Shown here: in pieces, positions 1,562 to 10,212 of the stretch
Position numbering within the stretch: position 1 is the first letter of the stretch
How the letters are laid out: the number at the start of each line of letters is the position of its first letter
Source of the DNA: Candidatus Thorarchaeota archaeon
GTDB taxonomy: Archaea > Asgardarchaeota > Thorarchaeia > Thorarchaeales > Thorarchaeaceae
Assembly: GCA_048882325.1 (NCBI GenBank)
Contig: JBHLRS010000035.1
Location: forward strand, 1 to 31,224
DNA length: 31,224 bases
Direction: 5' to 3'
Position numbers and translations under genes: made by a program
The notes under the pieces: model-generated
Told to the model about the DNA's origin: nothing
What the model saw: the letters and a program-made list of their open reading frames with translations, nothing else
Databases searched by the model: none

Positions 1562-2776
1562 TCAATCCAGTAGAACTACTTCTATATCCTCACCTTCTTC
1601 AATGACATCCAAATTGACTGGTAGCATAACATAACCATCTGCTTGAGCCATACTTGTGATAGCACCTGAATGTTTGAAGACTGGCGTTGCCACTCCATCC
1701 TCAATCCGTACTGTCAGGAATTGTTTTCGCCCAGATGACGACACTATGCGTTTCCCCATCTTAGCTCTCACAATCCGTTCTGCGCCGCTTGGCAGTCTGG
1801 CCATCTTCCTAATTGCAGGTACCAAGAAGACATGTGCATTACTCAAACATGAGGTTGGGAATCCCGGCATTCCAAAGATGGGTTTTCCTTGAATTGTCCC
1901 GAACAGGGTCGGTTTTCCTGGTTTTATCTGGACTCCATGAAAGACAACTTTACCCATTTCTTCAAGGATTCCCGCAAGTAGGTCTTTCTCCCCTACCGAA
2001 CTACCTCCTGAGAGGACCACCATATCGGACTCTAGAGCTTTCTCAATTCCCTGTCTGAGTAACTGAGGATCATCAGATATGATTGGCTGCCTATGAACAA
2101 TGGCTCCGTTCTTCTTAAGAATCGCTTCGAGTGTGAAAGAGTTCACATCATAGATTTGACCTGGCTTGAGTTGTTGTCCCGGCTGAACTATTTCTGTTCC
2201 TGTTGGAATCACACTGACTTTTGGTCTTTCGTACACTTCAACATGGGTCTTTCCCAGAGCTGATATTGTGCCCACTTTTGCAGGAGTCAGATGAAGGCCC
2301 TTCTTCAGAACGACATCCCCCTCTTCAATATCCTCTCCCATTTTGGATATGTTTGCTCCTGGGTACACTGGCTTTGTGATTAGGATCTTACTCCCTCTCT
2401 TCTCTGTAAACTCGACCATTACAACGGCATCTGCACCAGCAGGTTTCGGGGATCCCGTGGCTATCTGAATACAATGTCCACGACTGACCTCAATCTCAGA
2501 AACTTCTCCAGCGTGAATAACTCCATCGACCTCCAGAAGGACTTCCTCATGTCCTGCATTGAAGGTATCTTCAGCGACCACGGCATAGCCATCCATGGCG
2601 GACCTGTCAAATGGTGGTACAGACCTATCAGCAGTGATGTCCTCTGCAAGCACTCGTCCAATGGCATCACTAACAACTATAGTTTCTACACGGTCTATCT
2701 CTCCAGCATTTGATAGAATATGTTCTAGAGCCTCCTCATGTGAAACAAGAAGACTGAATGGTTCCATTCCTTTCAT
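1562..2776 (-). CDS. moeA: Molybdopterin molybdo/tungstotransferase MoeA
   Basis: PPFDRSAMDGYA, IATGSP.P.GADAV.MVE, TGTE, SGGSSVGEKD, KPGKP, GMPGFP motifs; located in the moa cluster. Confidence 0.96.
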   Translation of the reverse strand: MKGMEPFSLLVSHEEALEHILSNAGEIDRVETIVVSDAIGRVLAEDITADRSVPPFDRSAMDGYAVVAEDTFNAGHEEVLLEVDGVIHAGEVSEIEVSRGHCIQIATGSPKPAGADAVVMVEFTEKRGSKILITKPVYPGANISKMGEDIEEGDVVLKKGLHLTPAKVGTISALGKTHVEVYERPKVSVIPTGTEIVQPGQQLKPGQIYDVNSFTLEAILKKNGAIVHRQPIISDDPQLLRQGIEKALESDMVVLSGGSSVGEKDLLAGILEEMGKVVFHGVQIKPGKPTLFGTIQGKPIFGMPGFPTSCLSNAHVFLVPAIRKMARLPSGAERIVRAKMGKRIVSSSGRKQFLTVRIEDGVATPVFKHSGAITSMAQADGYVMLPVNLDVIEEGEDIEVVLLD

Positions 2777-3273
2777 CTATCTACCTCCCAGAGTAGGTGT
2801 CCAATCCCTGGTAAGATTATCTTAGTGAGTGCTGTTTTGACTGCATTCTTTGACCCAGGTAGGCAGAATGTGACTTTTTTACCAATCAATCCTGCTGTAG
2901 AACGACTAAATATCCCAGCCACTCCAATCTCCTCATGACTAATTCTGCGAAAGTGTTCGCCAAAACCTGGAAGAACCTCATCAAACATCTTCGAAACAGT
3001 CGTCACCGTGAGGTCTTTACTGCTTACTCCAGTCCCACCACTGGTCAGAATTACTCTAATCTCGGGATTATCCAAGTACACTTTGATTGCATCTTCGATC
3101 TCTTGAGCGTCATTCTTTACTATATCATACGCCAGTACTTTGTGATCTTCAGCCTCGAGCAACTCAATCGCTATTTTGCCTGACTTGTCTGTATCTTTGG
3201 TTCTACTATCACTAACAATCAATACTGCAATACCTGTACTAATCTTCTGATCACGTCTATGCTCGTCAATCAT
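2773..3273 (-). CDS. moaB: Molybdopterin adenylyltransferase MoaB/MogA family
   Basis: VSDSR...D.SG, TSGGTG...D.T, PGFGE.FR, SR..AG, FCLPGS. Confidence 0.93.
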   Translation of the reverse strand: MIDEHRRDQKISTGIAVLIVSDSRTKDTDKSGKIAIELLEAEDHKVLAYDIVKNDAQEIEDAIKVYLDNPEIRVILTSGGTGVSSKDLTVTTVSKMFDEVLPGFGEHFRRISHEEIGVAGIFSRSTAGLIGKKVTFCLPGSKNAVKTALTKIILPGIGHLLWEVDR

Positions 3274-3276
3274 TCG

Positions 3277-3729
3277 CTACCCCTTCCTCTTAGTTGTCAC
3301 TCTTATATTCCCAAGCCTAGCATGAGGATACTGCCCCTCAGAGTCCTTCTCAAGATACTTTACCATGTCCCAGATTGAGAGCAATGCTGTTGTCACGCCT
3401 ACTAGCGCTTCCATCTCAACACCGGTCACGTAAATTGCTGAAACACCGCAAATAGCGTGGATTCCAGTATCATTGAACTCAAACTTCACCTCAACCGAAG
3501 TCAATGGGATTTGGTGACAAAGAGGGATTATTTCAGAGGTTTTCTTTGCCGCTAGTATCCCTGCAGTTTCAGCTACTGCAAGGACATTACCCTTCTTTGT
3601 CGTTCCAGCTCGAATCTTTTTTGATGTTTCAGACTGAAGGATTATGTCCCCAACAGCTTCAGCGTAGCGTTTCACCATTTTCTTTCCTGAGACATCCACC
3701 ATCTTGATAGACTGCTCTCTATCTACCAT
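3277..3729 (-). CDS. moaC: Cyclic pyranopterin monophosphate synthase MoaC
   Basis: MVDVSGK, KKGNVL, AAKKTS.IIPLCH, TGVEMEAL, IWDMVKYLEKD (archaeal-type ending). Confidence 0.96.
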   Translation of the reverse strand: MVDREQSIKMVDVSGKKMVKRYAEAVGDIILQSETSKKIRAGTTKKGNVLAVAETAGILAAKKTSEIIPLCHQIPLTSVEVKFEFNDTGIHAICGVSAIYVTGVEMEALVGVTTALLSIWDMVKYLEKDSEGQYPHARLGNIRVTTKRKG

Positions 3730-3732
3730 AGG

Positions 3733-4140
3733 CTATTCACCCACCCAATACTCACCCTCACTAGTGAACTCCTTCTTCCAAATGTGCACGAACTCTTTCA
3801 GCCGCTCAATCACAAAACGACAACCAGCAAATGCCTCTGGTCTGTGTCCTGCTCCGACAACAATGAGGACTATATTGTCTTCCACCTCGAGTGTACCAAT
3901 CCTGTGAACTATGGAAACATCAGTCACTCCGTATTTCTCAATAGCTTCCTCGCGGATCTGTTCAAGCTGCGTAATGGCTTCAGCTTCATCAGATTCGAAA
4001 TGAAGCCGATGCACAGTTTTTCCATCGGTCATATCTCTGACAGTTCCTAAGAACATCACAATACAACCCATTGATGGTTTTCTGGTCTTTGCTACAACTT
4101 GATCTATTTGAAAATCCCTCTCTGTAACATCAATCACCAT
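3733..4140 (-). CDS. moaE: Molybdopterin synthase catalytic subunit MoaE
   Basis: G.IV.F.GTVRD, HRIG.L, HR.EAF.GC...IE.LK...IWKKE..W. Start moved to ATG 4140 (MVIDV), which overlaps the moaA stop; the ORF-track start at 4200 lies inside moaA. Confidence 0.93.
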   Translation of the reverse strand: MVIDVTERDFQIDQVVAKTRKPSMGCIVMFLGTVRDMTDGKTVHRLHFESDEAEAITQLEQIREEAIEKYGVTDVSIVHRIGTLEVEDNIVLIVVGAGHRPEAFAGCRFVIERLKEFVHIWKKEFTSEGEYWVGE

Positions 4141-5113
4141 CGGCTTTGTCTCTCCAATAGGGTTCTCTCTTCGCAATAGCCTGTTCGAAGGCTTGTTCAA
4201 TTGTTAGTTCCCCTTCCGAAGAGCGCTCCACGACATTGTCCAATCTGTACAAGCAGGGTTTCAACCTTCCATCTGATGTCACACGCAAACGTGTGCATCC
4301 GTCACAGAATGCTGAGTTATGATTAGGTCTGACGATTTCCACAACCACACTTCGCTGAGAGTCAAGGTCAATTGTGTATTGATAACGGCTCTGCATACTA
4401 CGTCGTTCAGTCTTTACTGCTCGTTCCCTAAGACTCTCCTCTAAAGGTCCTAAGTCCACCCACAGATTCTCGAGATTTGTTGAATCATCATCCACAATCA
4501 GTTGAAGCTCAATGATTTGTAGGACGGCTCCAACCTCGGATGCAAAGTCCATCAAACCTTCGATGCTTCCCTCGTTGTATCCTCTCAGAATCGTCATGTT
4601 CAACTTGATAGGTGAAAGACCTACAGCGACCGCTTGCCGCACACCACGTTTCACTCTCTCTAAATCGCCAGAGCCAGTCATCATTTGATAGGTCTTTGGA
4701 TCCATTGTATGGATGCTGACGTTGACTCTCGTGAGTCCAGCCTCCTTTAGGTCACTTGCCATTTCTTCAAGTAGTAACCCATTCGTCGTCATAGAAAGGT
4801 CTGACACGTAGGGCGAAACCAATCTGATGATGTCGAGAATGTCTTCTCGCAGAAGAGGCTCACCCCCAGTGAGTTTCACATTGTCTATCCCATACCTACT
4901 TGCATGTTTGACAATCCGCTCAATCTCAGCTGCAGTAATTTCATCCTCTGCATTGACTTCACCCTCCTGATGACAGAAGAAGCAGGAGAAACTGCACTTC
5001 TGAGTCACGGATATCCTTAGATTATCTATACGCCGTCCAAAGCTATCGATGTAAGATTGTTTCTTTGAATCGTAATCCTCTGAATCAGGTGTCACATGGT
5101 TGCGGATGGACAT
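4130..5113 (-). CDS. moaA: GTP 3',8-cyclase MoaA (radical SAM)
   Basis: DSFGR...LRISVTQKCSFSCFFCH.EG, TGGEPLLR, second cluster motif CDGC.RLR.T.DG.LKPCL, archaeal REPYW ending. Confidence 0.96.
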   Translation of the reverse strand: MSIRNHVTPDSEDYDSKKQSYIDSFGRRIDNLRISVTQKCSFSCFFCHQEGEVNAEDEITAAEIERIVKHASRYGIDNVKLTGGEPLLREDILDIIRLVSPYVSDLSMTTNGLLLEEMASDLKEAGLTRVNVSIHTMDPKTYQMMTGSGDLERVKRGVRQAVAVGLSPIKLNMTILRGYNEGSIEGLMDFASEVGAVLQIIELQLIVDDDSTNLENLWVDLGPLEESLRERAVKTERRSMQSRYQYTIDLDSQRSVVVEIVRPNHNSAFCDGCTRLRVTSDGRLKPCLYRLDNVVERSSEGELTIEQAFEQAIAKREPYWRDKADGD

Positions 5114-5146
5114 TTCGAAATCGAAAGTTCGTGCGATGATAATAAG

Positions 5147-5170
5147 TGTTATGTTGGGTCGTGCATATCG
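5147..5170. promoter_or_regulatory. Degenerate ModE-type operator immediately upstream of the moaA TATA-like box
   Basis: TGTTATGTT-GGGTCG-TGCATATCG has the same 9-6-9 geometry as the perfect tupA box. A minus-strand TATA-like CTTATTAT lies at 5139-5146, about 26 nt before the moaA ATG. Confidence 0.55.
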
Positions 5171-5182
5171 AACTGGATTTCC

Positions 5183-6265
5183 TTAGAATACTCTTACAGA
5201 TGAAGCTTTGAAAGTGACATAGACCTCATCATCAACAGAGATGTTGAGCCGGGTCTGAGATGTATGCGTTATTTGAACCATCAAGTCAACCCCAATGTCC
5301 ACAGTCAGTAGCGCAGTGGATTCTCTGGAATCTATTTTCACAACTTTGCCCAAGAGGGAGTTCCTTGCACTTGAAAGAACGATATCTCGTGATACAATGA
5401 TGTCTTGAGGTGGAATATATATGGTCACTTCTCCAGTTTCCCTGCCAAGCGCTTCGAGTGTGACTCCGTTGTCTAGTTCTATAGTCACAAGCCTTTTTCC
5501 TTGCTCTGTATCACCATTAGATCTTGCTATACCTGAGAATGTGTTGCTCTTGTATTCATCTTGCATAAGACCTTCAAGTTCAGATCTGAATATCTCACTA
5601 ACAGTTCCTACTTTCGATATTTTCCCATGTTGAAGTATGGCAGCTCTATTTGCAAGGACTTCCGCCTGCAAGAAATTGTGAGTGATCATCACGATTGTTG
5701 TAGTTCTCTCTGAGTTCAACCGTTTCAAAGTGGTTTCGATAATCTCCGCACTCTCATTGTCCAAGTACGCGGTTGGTTCATCAACTAGTAAGAGTTCTGT
5801 GTCGAGAGCTATTGCCATAGCTAGTGAGGCTCTTCTTTGTTCTCCGCCTGAAAGGGTTCGTGCCAATCTGTCCTGAAGCTCAGTCAATTGAACCAACTCT
5901 AGTGTTTCAAGAACAGTTCTTTCAACCTGCTTCTCAGCATATCCTCTGATCCTGAGCCCATATGCGACGTTTTTGAATACGGTTGTGTTGAACAGGGTCG
6001 GTTTTTGGAATACCATTGGTGCCTGTCTTCGGAGATCCTGTCTATTCTCTTCTATGATTGGATTCCCATGAAACAATAGACTACCTTCTGAAGGCTTTAG
6101 CAGTCCTGCAATCACTCTTAAAGCGGTGGTTTTGCCAGCACCATTGGGACCGATGATGGAGAACATCTCTCCTTCATTTATGGAGAAGGTAACTCTGTCA
6201 AGTGCCTTGACTGACCCATATGACACACTCACGTTCTCCAACTGGATTATTCCCATAACCACCAC
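5183..6265 (-). CDS. tupC: Tungstate ABC transporter ATPase with C-terminal TOBE domain
   Basis: Walker A GPNGAGKT, LSGGEQ signature, LLLVDEP, H-loop, TOBE motifs SARN.L.GKV and V.FKASSV; follows tupAB. Confidence 0.9.
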   Translation of the reverse strand: MVVMGIIQLENVSVSYGSVKALDRVTFSINEGEMFSIIGPNGAGKTTALRVIAGLLKPSEGSLLFHGNPIIEENRQDLRRQAPMVFQKPTLFNTTVFKNVAYGLRIRGYAEKQVERTVLETLELVQLTELQDRLARTLSGGEQRRASLAMAIALDTELLLVDEPTAYLDNESAEIIETTLKRLNSERTTTIVMITHNFLQAEVLANRAAILQHGKISKVGTVSEIFRSELEGLMQDEYKSNTFSGIARSNGDTEQGKRLVTIELDNGVTLEALGRETGEVTIYIPPQDIIVSRDIVLSSARNSLLGKVVKIDSRESTALLTVDIGVDLMVQITHTSQTRLNISVDDEVYVTFKASSVRVF

Positions 6266-6909
6266 TGAACCTTTTTTCGTAACGCACCAAGCCCTGCGTT
6301 CACAACGAGTATGAGTGTCAGCAGAATCAGTGTGAGTCCTAGACCAAGTGCTATCTCTCCTCTTGTTGTTTCAAGTGCGATTGAAGTTGTTAGCACTCGC
6401 GTCAGACCTCTAATGTTTCCACCAATCATTAGAGCAACTCCAAGTTCAGCAATTGCTCTACTAAAACTAGCTGAACTTGCTAGTAGAATCCCTCCAAATG
6501 ACTCGCGAACAACCGAAAATGCCGCTGCTTTTCCATCTGCTCCGAGAGTCAATGCTAAGTCTCTGATTGACTCGTCCACACTAGTTATTGTTTCTGTTGT
6601 TATACTCACCATTATCGGTGATATCAAAATTGTTTGACCGACAACGATTCCTGTCGGAGTATAGAGAAGGTCCAAGAAACCAAGAGGTCCTGCGTTAGAA
6701 AATGCTAGGTAGAGGACAAGGCCAAGAGCAACAGTAGGTAGGCCCATTAGGGAATTGAATCCTCCTACAACTATCGACCTTCCCTTGAACTTCTTCAGAC
6801 CAAGGACAAGTCCAGTGGGTAATCCGACTGCAGTAGCTAACAGGGCTGCAGACCCAGATATGAATAGACTTTGCAAAGTTATCTGTATGAGATCGCTCTC
6901 GACTGTCAT
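6247..6909 (-). CDS. tupB: Tungstate ABC transporter permease
   Basis: MGLPTV..GL, GPLG...LLYT, SRAIAELG...IGGNI...TR.LTT.I.LET..G. Confidence 0.92.
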   Translation of the reverse strand: MTVESDLIQITLQSLFISGSAALLATAVGLPTGLVLGLKKFKGRSIVVGGFNSLMGLPTVALGLVLYLAFSNAGPLGFLDLLYTPTGIVVGQTILISPIMVSITTETITSVDESIRDLALTLGADGKAAAFSVVRESFGGILLASSASFSRAIAELGVALMIGGNIRGLTRVLTTSIALETTRGEIALGLGLTLILLTLILVVNAGLGALRKKVQWWLWE

Positions 6910-6948
6910 TTCCTGTCTTATCCTCCTCTACTTTTCTTTGTCTACTTA

Positions 6949-7947
6949 TTATCCATAAAGTCCATAATCGCCACTCTGCCATTCCGGAGGGCACTCGTAG
7001 AGGGTTCCTCCATCATTGAAAAATGCATAGTCACTTATCCACCCGTAAATTTGAGTTGGTGACTGAGTTTCAATTATATCGACTGCTGGGAAAAAGAGAC
7101 CCTGTCCGTAGTCTGACACACCATAATCCGCTATCAAGTCTTGTACATCGGAACTAACAAGCCATTGAAGGAATTGCATTGATAGGCTGAATTTCACCGA
7201 TGTGACAGTAGTACTGTTCACTGGAATTGCTGAATACACATTCAGAAGGTCTTGTCCTTCTTCGACCAGCTGGTTGAGGGATATCAAGCCATCCTCTCTG
7301 TACTTCAGGTAGGTGCCAATATCAGCCAATGTGTATAATGACTGCTCATTGGCTATATTCAGAGTTGAACCCATGCCCTGACCTGAAGACACAAACCATG
7401 ACAAATCTCTGAGCTCCGTGTAGTTATAACCCGCGGCACTCCACAACGCAATCTCCTTCGAGTTTGTACCTGAGAGATCATCCCTACTAACCCAGAGGCT
7501 TGTGTTGTGTGCATTTCCATATGCGTATATCGACTGAAGGGCAGCTACGGGGTCTGTTTGGTTTATTCCTGCAACATCACTTGAGGGTCCCACAATTGTG
7601 AAGTAGTTATATGCGAATATCTTCCTATTCACCCCAAAGCTCGCATTCATGAACGCATATTCCTGAGATGGCGAATGAACAAGAATCATGTCTGCGTCTC
7701 CATTCATCGCGTGTGTTATCGCAATTCCTGTTCCAGCTGAAATGAATGCAAGAATCACATTGGGATGATCTTCCTCATATCTTTCCTTTAACAGATCCAA
7801 CAGACCGGTATCATACAAACTGGTTGTTGTTGAGATTGTGAGAGTTTCTTTTCCTTGAGTTTGAAGCCAATAGAAATAGAACCCAGTCCCAGTGAGGGCA
7901 ACAATAACCACTATCGCTACTCCAGCTATTCTTGTTTCTCTACGCAT
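6949..7947 (-). CDS. tupA: Tungstate-binding protein TupA, N-terminally membrane-anchored
   Basis: TTTS motif (STTTSLYDTGLL), GTG.A...GDAD..LVH, SRDD.SGT, GQGMG.TL. ATG at 7947 is preceded by a GAGGT SD-like sequence. Confidence 0.92.
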   Translation of the reverse strand: MRRETRIAGVAIVVIVALTGTGFYFYWLQTQGKETLTISTTTSLYDTGLLDLLKERYEEDHPNVILAFISAGTGIAITHAMNGDADMILVHSPSQEYAFMNASFGVNRKIFAYNYFTIVGPSSDVAGINQTDPVAALQSIYAYGNAHNTSLWVSRDDLSGTNSKEIALWSAAGYNYTELRDLSWFVSSGQGMGSTLNIANEQSLYTLADIGTYLKYREDGLISLNQLVEEGQDLLNVYSAIPVNSTTVTSVKFSLSMQFLQWLVSSDVQDLIADYGVSDYGQGLFFPAVDIIETQSPTQIYGWISDYAFFNDGGTLYECPPEWQSGDYGLYG

Positions 7948-7962
7948 ATGAGAGTACAACCT

Positions 7963-7986
7963 CGATATGTTTCAACAAACATATCG
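7963..7986. promoter_or_regulatory. Perfect palindromic operator (ModE-type) at the tupA promoter
   Basis: CGATATGTTT-CAAC-AAACATATCG has perfect 10-bp arms and spans 24 bp from CG to CG. Minus-strand BRE/TATA-like AAAGAG-TAATATAA at 8020-8007 puts the predicted start site inside the palindrome. Confidence 0.75.
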
Positions 7987-8059
7987 GAGGTAATCGTTGA
8001 GGGGGATTATATTACTCTTTCTGAAGAAGTTCTTGTCACTCGCTGTCTTGGTATCTCTT

Positions 8060-9702: not shown

Positions 9703-10212
9703 ATGACTGTCCGTGAAATACTACAGCTTGGCAATCCTCAGTTGTACAAGACATCAGAAGAGGTGACAAAGGCCGAGCTAGATGAGATACCACCCATTGT
9801 CCAAGATCTACATGACACCATGATGGACTTCAGAAAGAAGTATGGTGCAGGCAGAGCCATAGCTGCTCCTCAGATCGGAGTCATGAAACGGATAGTCTAC
9901 ATGCACATTACCACTCCGGTAGTCTTCCTTAACCCAACTCTGAAGAATTTGAGTGATGAGATGATTGAGCTCTGGGATGACTGTATGTGTTTTCCAGACC
10001 TTCTTGTTAGAGTCCGTCGACATAAACGTTGTACGATTGAATACAGGGACATGGAATGGAACCTCAAAGCCATGGAACTAGAGGATGACCTGTCAGAATT
10101 GCTGCAACATGAGTATGACCATCTAGAGGGTGTCCTAGCTGTCATGAGGGCTATAGATAGATGGTCCTTCGCCTACAAAAACCAGATAGAACCTCATAGA
10201 CCTCAAACATAA
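9703..10212 (+). CDS. def: Peptide deformylase family protein (variant motifs)
   Basis: ILQLGNP.L, motif 1 GRAIAAPQIG, motif 2 DDCMCFP, motif 3 QHEYDHLEG. Confidence 0.9.
   Translation: MTVREILQLGNPQLYKTSEEVTKAELDEIPPIVQDLHDTMMDFRKKYGAGRAIAAPQIGVMKRIVYMHITTPVVFLNPTLKNLSDEMIELWDDCMCFPDLLVRVRRHKRCTIEYRDMEWNLKAMELEDDLSELLQHEYDHLEGVLAVMRAIDRWSFAYKNQIEPHRPQT

Follow-up and report, generated by a model that had tools for sequence, protein, structure and literature searches.

What is the function of two ModE-type boxes that are located in opposite promoter positions, one upstream of a gene for tungstate uptake (tupA) and the other upstream of a gene for pterin synthesis (moaA), in a contig of Candidatus Thorarchaeota archaeon? 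The window analyzed here is the complete 31.2-kb contig (C35, JBHLRS010000035.1) from a genome assembly of 3.6 Mb that is 93% complete and has a G+C content of 44%. The original prediction, made from the window, was that a ModE-like tungstate or molybdate sensor encoded elsewhere represses uptake at one box and activates cofactor synthesis at the other. This interpretation is supported by our comparison of the window with the rest of the genome and with related genomes. Both boxes very likely serve as operators in an archaeal regulon of the ModE type, which also includes two genes of the AOR family.

Operator 1 (7963..7986) is a perfect palindrome with a 9-6-9 layout, CGATATGTT-TCAACA-AACATATCG, and is the only perfect site found in a pattern scan of the whole genome. 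As a palindrome it is listed without a strand, whereas the genes around both boxes are all encoded on the minus strand. The box ends approximately 13 nt before the ATG of tupA, and is followed by a GGAG-like element and then by the start codon. Of the 28 genus genomes, the 11 that possess tupA all retain the box upstream of it. The half-sites are nearly invariant across the genus, while the 6-nt spacer differs in almost every genome, which is the mark of a protein-binding dyad. The putative tupA promoter core (8007..8022) consists of the TATA box TAATATAA (8014-8007, minus strand) and, 5′ of it, the purine-rich element AGAAAGAG (8022-8015, minus strand), which resembles a TFB recognition element (BRE). 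In the genus orthologues, the block GAAACAGTAATATAG recurs at a constant 20–22 nt upstream of the tupA box, and the region 8007..8022 probably acts as the promoter of tupA. Given the usual archaeal spacing, transcription is predicted to start at the first bases of operator 1, which would place the box in a repressor position.

Operator 2 (5147..5170, likewise without a strand) lies in the spacer between tupC and moaA. It is a degenerate copy of the motif, TGTTATGTT-GGGTCG-TGCATATCG, which reads CGATATGCA-N6-AACATAACA in the orientation of the genes. The box has four mismatches to the perfect palindrome of operator 1 and is one of 17 such sites genome-wide, and by itself, without the comparative data, it would not be convincing. 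It is real because it is conserved in relatives. The box is kept between tupC and moaA in all eight relatives with a readable junction, where it reaches scores of 16.6–26.9 with the weight matrix described below, and in G011, a ninth relative, whose locus is rearranged, it adjoins moaA. In that genome, moaA and tupA point away from each other, with two boxes, 27 bp apart, positioned between them, and therefore each gene has retained its own box through the rearrangement. The boxes of the tupC–moaA junctions share the asymmetric form CGATATGYW-N6-AACATAACA in gene orientation. Their proximal half-site, AACATAACA, directly abuts the putative moaA TATA box CTTATTAT (5139..5146, minus strand), from which the ATG is 25 nt downstream. 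The TATA sequence is identical in eight of the nine tupC–moaA junctions, the exception being CTTATCTT in locus L066, and is always located 24–26 nt before the ATG; the moaA mRNA is therefore probably leaderless. The coordinates and sequences that had been given for both boxes and both TATA-like elements proved exact, and the arrangement proposed for them, downstream of TATA at tupA and directly upstream of it at moaA, is conserved in relatives.

The motif is enriched where a tungsten regulon would have it. The pattern proposed in the original prediction occurs, with up to three mismatches, twice in the window, compared with 0.04 occurrences expected. The sole other site in the genome with at most two mismatches is on contig C2, in a divergent intergenic region, approximately 100 nt upstream of a gene of the AOR family for a putative tungstoenzyme of 727 residues. 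A search of 41 related genomes with at most one mismatch allowed yielded 15 sites for the pattern, against a single site for the reversed control. Thirteen of the 15 belong to the promoter regions of tupA, of moaA, or of a ferredoxin-AOR operon, and the remaining two, both in relatives (L015 and L017), are within unrelated coding sequence. A weight matrix was trained on the sites of relatives together with the tupA site of this genome, leaving out the two AOR sites of this genome, and was used to scan the whole genome. The top five matches all exceed the maximum of 15.6 reached in the reversed-genome control, and four of them are the sites at tupA (36.0), the AOR genes on contigs C2 (18.2) and C49 (17.2), and moaA (16.7). 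The enrichment upstream of tup, moa, and AOR genes that had been anticipated is thus seen both in this genome and in its relatives, and all of the computational checks suggested in the original prediction had a positive outcome.

The AOR boxes are themselves conserved. All 13 orthologues of the gene on C49 have the box between −88 and −92, and at the gene on C2 most orthologues have a more degenerate dyad near −105. The ferredoxin-AOR operons of relatives G001 and G012 also contain the box in their promoters, where, as at AOR-C2, it is 8–14 nt upstream of the likely TATA box. Genomes that lack tupA still have boxes at AOR promoters. When the putative TATA elements are taken as reference, the box is downstream at the transporter promoter and upstream at four kinds of enzyme and cofactor promoters, and this geometry is kept at tupA, moaA, AOR-C49, and the ferredoxin-AOR operon.

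Three further features of the AOR loci were observed. The AOR-C49 promoter (L171, G000:C49:5079-9872; orthologues L172-L183) contains a second dyad, CG-ATATGAA...ACCATATCG, with a 7-nt spacer, which overlaps the first box by 2 nt and abuts the conserved TATA-like sequence CATATTAG; two regulator dimers may bind side by side at this promoter. At AOR-C2, approximately 80 nt between the dyad and the ATG are strongly conserved (ACGACAAGACTCAAATGTGAG ... GGTGATTCTATG; L148:1425-1500, orthologues L149-L170). No conserved RNA structure, covariation, or Rfam match was detected in this leader, and the segment may combine promoter and leader or serve as an additional binding site. In G011, the AOR-C2 orthologue (L157, G011:C152) contains one in-frame TAG, and may be a pseudogene or reflect an assembly error.

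Which protein binds the boxes? As the original prediction stated, the window contains no regulator gene. The single homologue of the ModE N-terminal domain in the genome is P0001, a protein of 113 residues encoded on contig C26, which contains a winged helix-turn-helix of the ModE type at its N terminus. It matches the model TIGR00637 with an E-value of 5e-23 (81 bits), belongs to the Pfam family HTH_1, and retains the SYRYAW and GGGGA signatures. The protein aligns to the DNA-binding domain of Escherichia coli ModE (1O7L/1B9M, E-value 2.8e-9) and to the stand-alone domain 2IJL. Its gene is present as a single copy in 26 of the 28 genus genomes. Approximately 70 homologues from Thorarchaeota and other Asgard archaea were fetched, and all of them end within 15 residues after the winged-helix domain, whereas eight of nine homologues from Bathyarchaeia or Bathyarchaeota continue for a further 42–82 residues, which form a Mop domain in the one that was checked (L146). 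At this Bathyarchaeia locus, a box with a score of 22.5 precedes a tupA-tupB-tupC-modE operon. The box is 23 nt after the TATA element and 14 nt before the ATG, the same TATA-box-ATG layout as that of Thorarchaeota tupA, and the ModE protein of the operon combines helix-turn-helix and Mop domains. The locus therefore links the ModE protein family to the box. A box that would mediate autoregulation of the Thorarchaeota gene was looked for and not found, as no position in the surrounding 15 kb scores above 3.8 with the weight matrix. The neighbors of the gene (L004:4350-9078, C26) encode a polyferredoxin-like protein, an AIR-synthase-family (SelD-like) protein, and an archaeal SelB-type elongation factor, and are parts of the selenocysteine machinery in a Thorarchaeote. 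In genome G009, the regulator gene (L059/L060, G009:C132) is split by a TAA codon, and may be a pseudogene or the result of an assembly error.

We propose a dimer of P0001 as the most likely protein to bind the dyad CGATATGT-N8-ACATATCG. At tupA, the bound regulator would be located downstream of the TATA box and over the predicted start site, where it could block RNA polymerase and thus repress tungstate uptake. At moaA, the two AOR genes, and the ferredoxin-AOR operon of relatives, it would be positioned upstream of the TATA box. In archaea, a site directly upstream of TATA usually aids TBP and TFB, and binding there would thus result in activation, so that a fall in uptake would be accompanied by a rise in cofactor synthesis and in certain tungstoenzymes. 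We give this assignment of opposite signs, repression at tupA and activation at moaA and the AOR genes, roughly even chances.

Several observations weigh against the regulon as proposed, or against its signs. P0001 scores below the NCBIfam cut-off of 98.5 bits for TIGR00637. The protein has no Mop, TOBE, or other metal-binding domain, and ends after the wing and a helix. At 93% completeness, the assembly could be missing the gene for a second regulator or for a Mop protein. The box is present at only two of the 12 AOR paralogues, those on C2 and C49; no weight matrix score above 5 was found within 1.2 kb upstream of the other ten. The second-best match in the genome (C18:59321-59344; L005:3322-3345; score 19.9) falls within an M28 peptidase gene, and a WD40-repeat gene begins 380 nt further on; it was set aside as probably a chance or unrelated site. 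The assignments of TATA, BRE, and start sites were made from sequence only. Furthermore, the proximal half-site occupies the BRE position at moaA and AOR-C49, as the original prediction had noted for moaA when it allowed for repression there, and in other archaeal systems a protein bound on the BRE can repress transcription by keeping TFB off. Whether moaA is activated or repressed is therefore not readable from the sequence. The ModE of Methanosarcina acetivorans represses its tested targets, which include transporters and the formylmethanofuran dehydrogenase operon, has so far been shown as a repressor only, and is insensitive to molybdate in vitro (PMC12327845).

The last of these points lead to the strongest alternative, in which the same ModE protein binds the same operators and represses everywhere, by blocking polymerase at tupA and TFB at moaA and AOR-C49. 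In that case, tungstate uptake, the synthesis of pterin, and the tungstoenzymes with a box would switch together, as a regulon for the supply of tungsten cofactor, and not in a see-saw. This arrangement would suit the abutment of the proximal half-site and the TATA box at moaA and AOR-C49, which leaves no room for a separate BRE, as well as the repressor function of the M. acetivorans protein. It would also suit the spacer between tupC and moaA, in which there is no T-run terminator, so the tup and moa genes may also be co-transcribed. Repression throughout does not explain, however, why the boxes fall into two position classes, downstream at the transporter and upstream at four kinds of promoters, that are consistent across genomes and form the pattern of archaeal dual-function regulators. 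Moreover, the boxes at AOR-C2 and the ferredoxin-AOR operon, 8–14 nt upstream of the putative TATA and BRE, are clear of both elements, and E. coli ModE activates moa. We consider uniform repression possible but rather unlikely.

It is improbable that the boxes are genuine operators of another transcription factor and that P0001 has a different role. Such a separation could account for the absence of linkage between the regulator gene and tungsten or molybdenum genes in this genome, for the absence of a box of its own, and for the wider distribution of the regulator (26 of 28 genomes) than of tupA (11 of 28). It is contradicted by the identity of the motif core to that of the proven Methanosarcina ModE box (PMC12327845), by the Bathyarchaeia operon, which ties the ModE family to the box, and by the AOR-promoter boxes of genomes without tupA. 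The remaining alternative, that the moaA copy resembles the motif by accident or that the palindromes are RNA hairpins of a terminator or attenuator, draws on the degeneracy of the moaA box, at a level common to 17 genome sites, and on the 9-bp stem that operator 1 could form in the tupA leader, but is effectively refuted by conservation, since the moaA box is present, with better matches, in all relatives, the same sequence recurs beyond complementarity at unlinked promoters, half-site changes are not compensatory, no T-run follows the boxes, neither box has a terminator-like element, and Rfam matches were absent from the window and from both AOR loci.

If P0001 is the regulator of the tungsten genes, how would it perceive tungstate? 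The original prediction of a ModE-like sensor encoded elsewhere holds with respect to the winged helix on C26, with the caveat that P0001 has no TOBE or Mop domain and is therefore probably not itself the metal sensor. With such a regulator, the tungstate signal must arrive indirectly, and it could do so through a partner, the cofactor, or the expression level of the regulator itself. The TOBE domain of the transporter ATPase TupC is the sole match to PF03459 that a profile search found in the 93% complete genome. It retains the motifs SSARN and FKASSV, which we take to be the oxyanion-binding motifs of Mop domains. The more specific idea that a Mop-less ModE runs the tungsten regulon throughout the Thorarchaeota lineage, with the signal provided in trans by the TupC TOBE domain or by finished tungsten cofactor, is speculative and, in our estimate, doubtful. 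If true, it would represent a transporter-coupled or cofactor-coupled transcription switch that acts on the archaeal TBP/TFB machinery. A predicted complex of the ModE N-domain protein with the TupC TOBE domain had a score of 0.00, compared with a mark of 0.32, which speaks neither for nor against binding.

The genes that the two boxes would control can be divided into a transporter cluster and a cofactor cluster. The tupA-like gene (6949..7947, minus strand) encodes a putative tungstate-binding protein with the Pfam domain PBP_like_2 (2.3e-29), for which the top NCBIfam model is that of TupA (NF041772), at 164.9 bits, which is lower than that model's equivalog threshold of 400. It is adjoined by genes for a permease (tupB, 6247..6909, minus strand; Pfam BPD_transp_1, NCBIfam TupB and ModB models) and for the ATPase (tupC, 5183..6265, minus strand; Pfam ABC_tran and the C-terminal TOBE/Mop domain), and the adjacent genes may form a transporter of the TupABC type. 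The gene moaA (4130..5113, minus strand; Pfam Radical_SAM and Mob_synth_C) is the first in the series moaA-moaE-moaC-moaB/mog-moeA (1562..5113, minus strand), which is located 3′ of operator 2 and contains the Pfam domains MoaE, MoaC, MoCF_biosynth, and MoeA_N/C. The order from moaA to moeA is kept among relatives. The moa cluster of the window includes moaE and has no moaD. Directly 3′ of the boxed AOR gene on C49, there is a gene for a 102-residue protein of the ThiS/MoaD family (L032:2179-2487, minus strand), which may be the absent MoaD of the cluster, placed under the same control.

Two neighbors of these clusters complete the description of the locus. Directly 5′ of tupA in most genomes of the genus is a gene, here at 8932-8060 on the minus strand, for an iron–sulfur protein of 290 residues, which has a C-terminal 2x[4Fe-4S] domain and an unassigned N-terminal part of approximately 200 residues and is 73–86% identical among these genomes. 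The window also contains, at 9703-10212 on the plus strand, a gene for polypeptide deformylase (Pfam 1.3e-37), an enzyme that is typically bacterial, in an archaeal genome.

To our knowledge, specific regulation of transcription in Asgard archaea is almost uncharted, and their genetic manipulation is not yet possible. In the system described here, a likely regulator is neatly matched with an operator, four or more target promoters are conserved, and the box positions follow a clear pattern; one small protein together with short DNA fragments would suffice for testing it in vitro. The boxes also single out the two AOR paralogues, of 12, that would be linked to tungsten supply. The principle of a ModE box upstream of genes for molybdenum or tungsten transport, moa genes, and molybdenum or tungsten enzymes is already well known. 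The points of interest are the regulator that lacks a Mop domain throughout a lineage and the conserved promoter layout with two box positions. How a Mop-less ModE senses metal, a question raised before for Campylobacter and Desulfovibrio, is thereby also posed for an entire lineage of archaea.

The dyad CGATATGT-N8-ACATATCG shares two properties with ModE boxes of known systems: it is an inverted repeat with half-sites of the TAT(A/G)T type and fixed spacing, and its location is conserved in promoters of genes for molybdenum or tungsten transport, cofactor synthesis, and enzymes. A close counterpart is the ModE box of M. acetivorans, RTTATGT-N8-RCATAAY, which is required for binding in electrophoretic mobility shift assays (PMC12327845). 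That system is also archaeal, its core TATGT-N8-ACATA is identical, and its sites are likewise 5′ of molybdenum or tungsten transporters and enzymes. The sequence ACATAAC, which is the proximal half of the moaA box, agrees with the Methanosarcina consensus at every position. The flanks differ, being CGA-TATGT here and RT-TATGT in Methanosarcina. Furthermore, the Methanosarcina regulator contains one Mop domain, is encoded beside a transporter, and has nitrogenases among its targets, whereas the Thorarchaeota protein has no Mop domain, is encoded in an unlinked position, and is associated with tup, moa, and AOR genes.

The operator consensus of E. coli ModE is ATCGNTATATA-N6-TATATANCGAT (PMC545781). 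The Thorarchaeota boxes share with the E. coli modA and moaA operators the outer CG and the 9-6-9 layout, and P0001 aligns to the E. coli N-domain (1O7L/1B9M). The proposed logic, repression of uptake together with activation of moa, would also be the same. The inner triplet is GTT here instead of ATA, the promoters are of the archaeal TBP/TFB type, there is no di-Mop sensor domain, and the transporter is a putative Tup system, for tungstate, and not Mod, for molybdate.

ModE homologues without a sensor domain have been described in bacteria. According to the account of Taveirne et al. 2009 given in PMC3417520, the ModE-like protein Cj1507c of Campylobacter jejuni has no metal-binding domain and still mediates tungstate-dependent repression of tupABC. 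As far as that account goes, the absence of a metal-binding domain is common to both systems, as would be the tupABC target, whereas Cj1507c is bacterial and has a coiled-coil C-terminal part, and the Thorarchaeota protein ends within approximately 15 residues after the winged helix. The ModE proteins of Desulfovibrio consist of the DNA-binding domain only, and their sensing mechanism is unclear (PMC545781). They resemble P0001 as stand-alone N-domains; their predicted operator, CGGTCACG-N14-CGTGACCG, is unrelated, and separate Mop-fusion proteins are encoded nearby (PMC545781). No free Mop protein was found in the 93% complete Thorarchaeota genome.

The positional logic has its precedent in the Thermococcales, in which SurR and TrmBL1/Tgr each use one motif that is repressive downstream of TATA and activating upstream of BRE and TATA. 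The resemblance is in logic only, as the protein families and the signals are unrelated. The positions of the Thorarchaeota boxes relative to the conserved TATA-like elements, as predicted from sequence, would fit position-dependent dual regulation of this kind.

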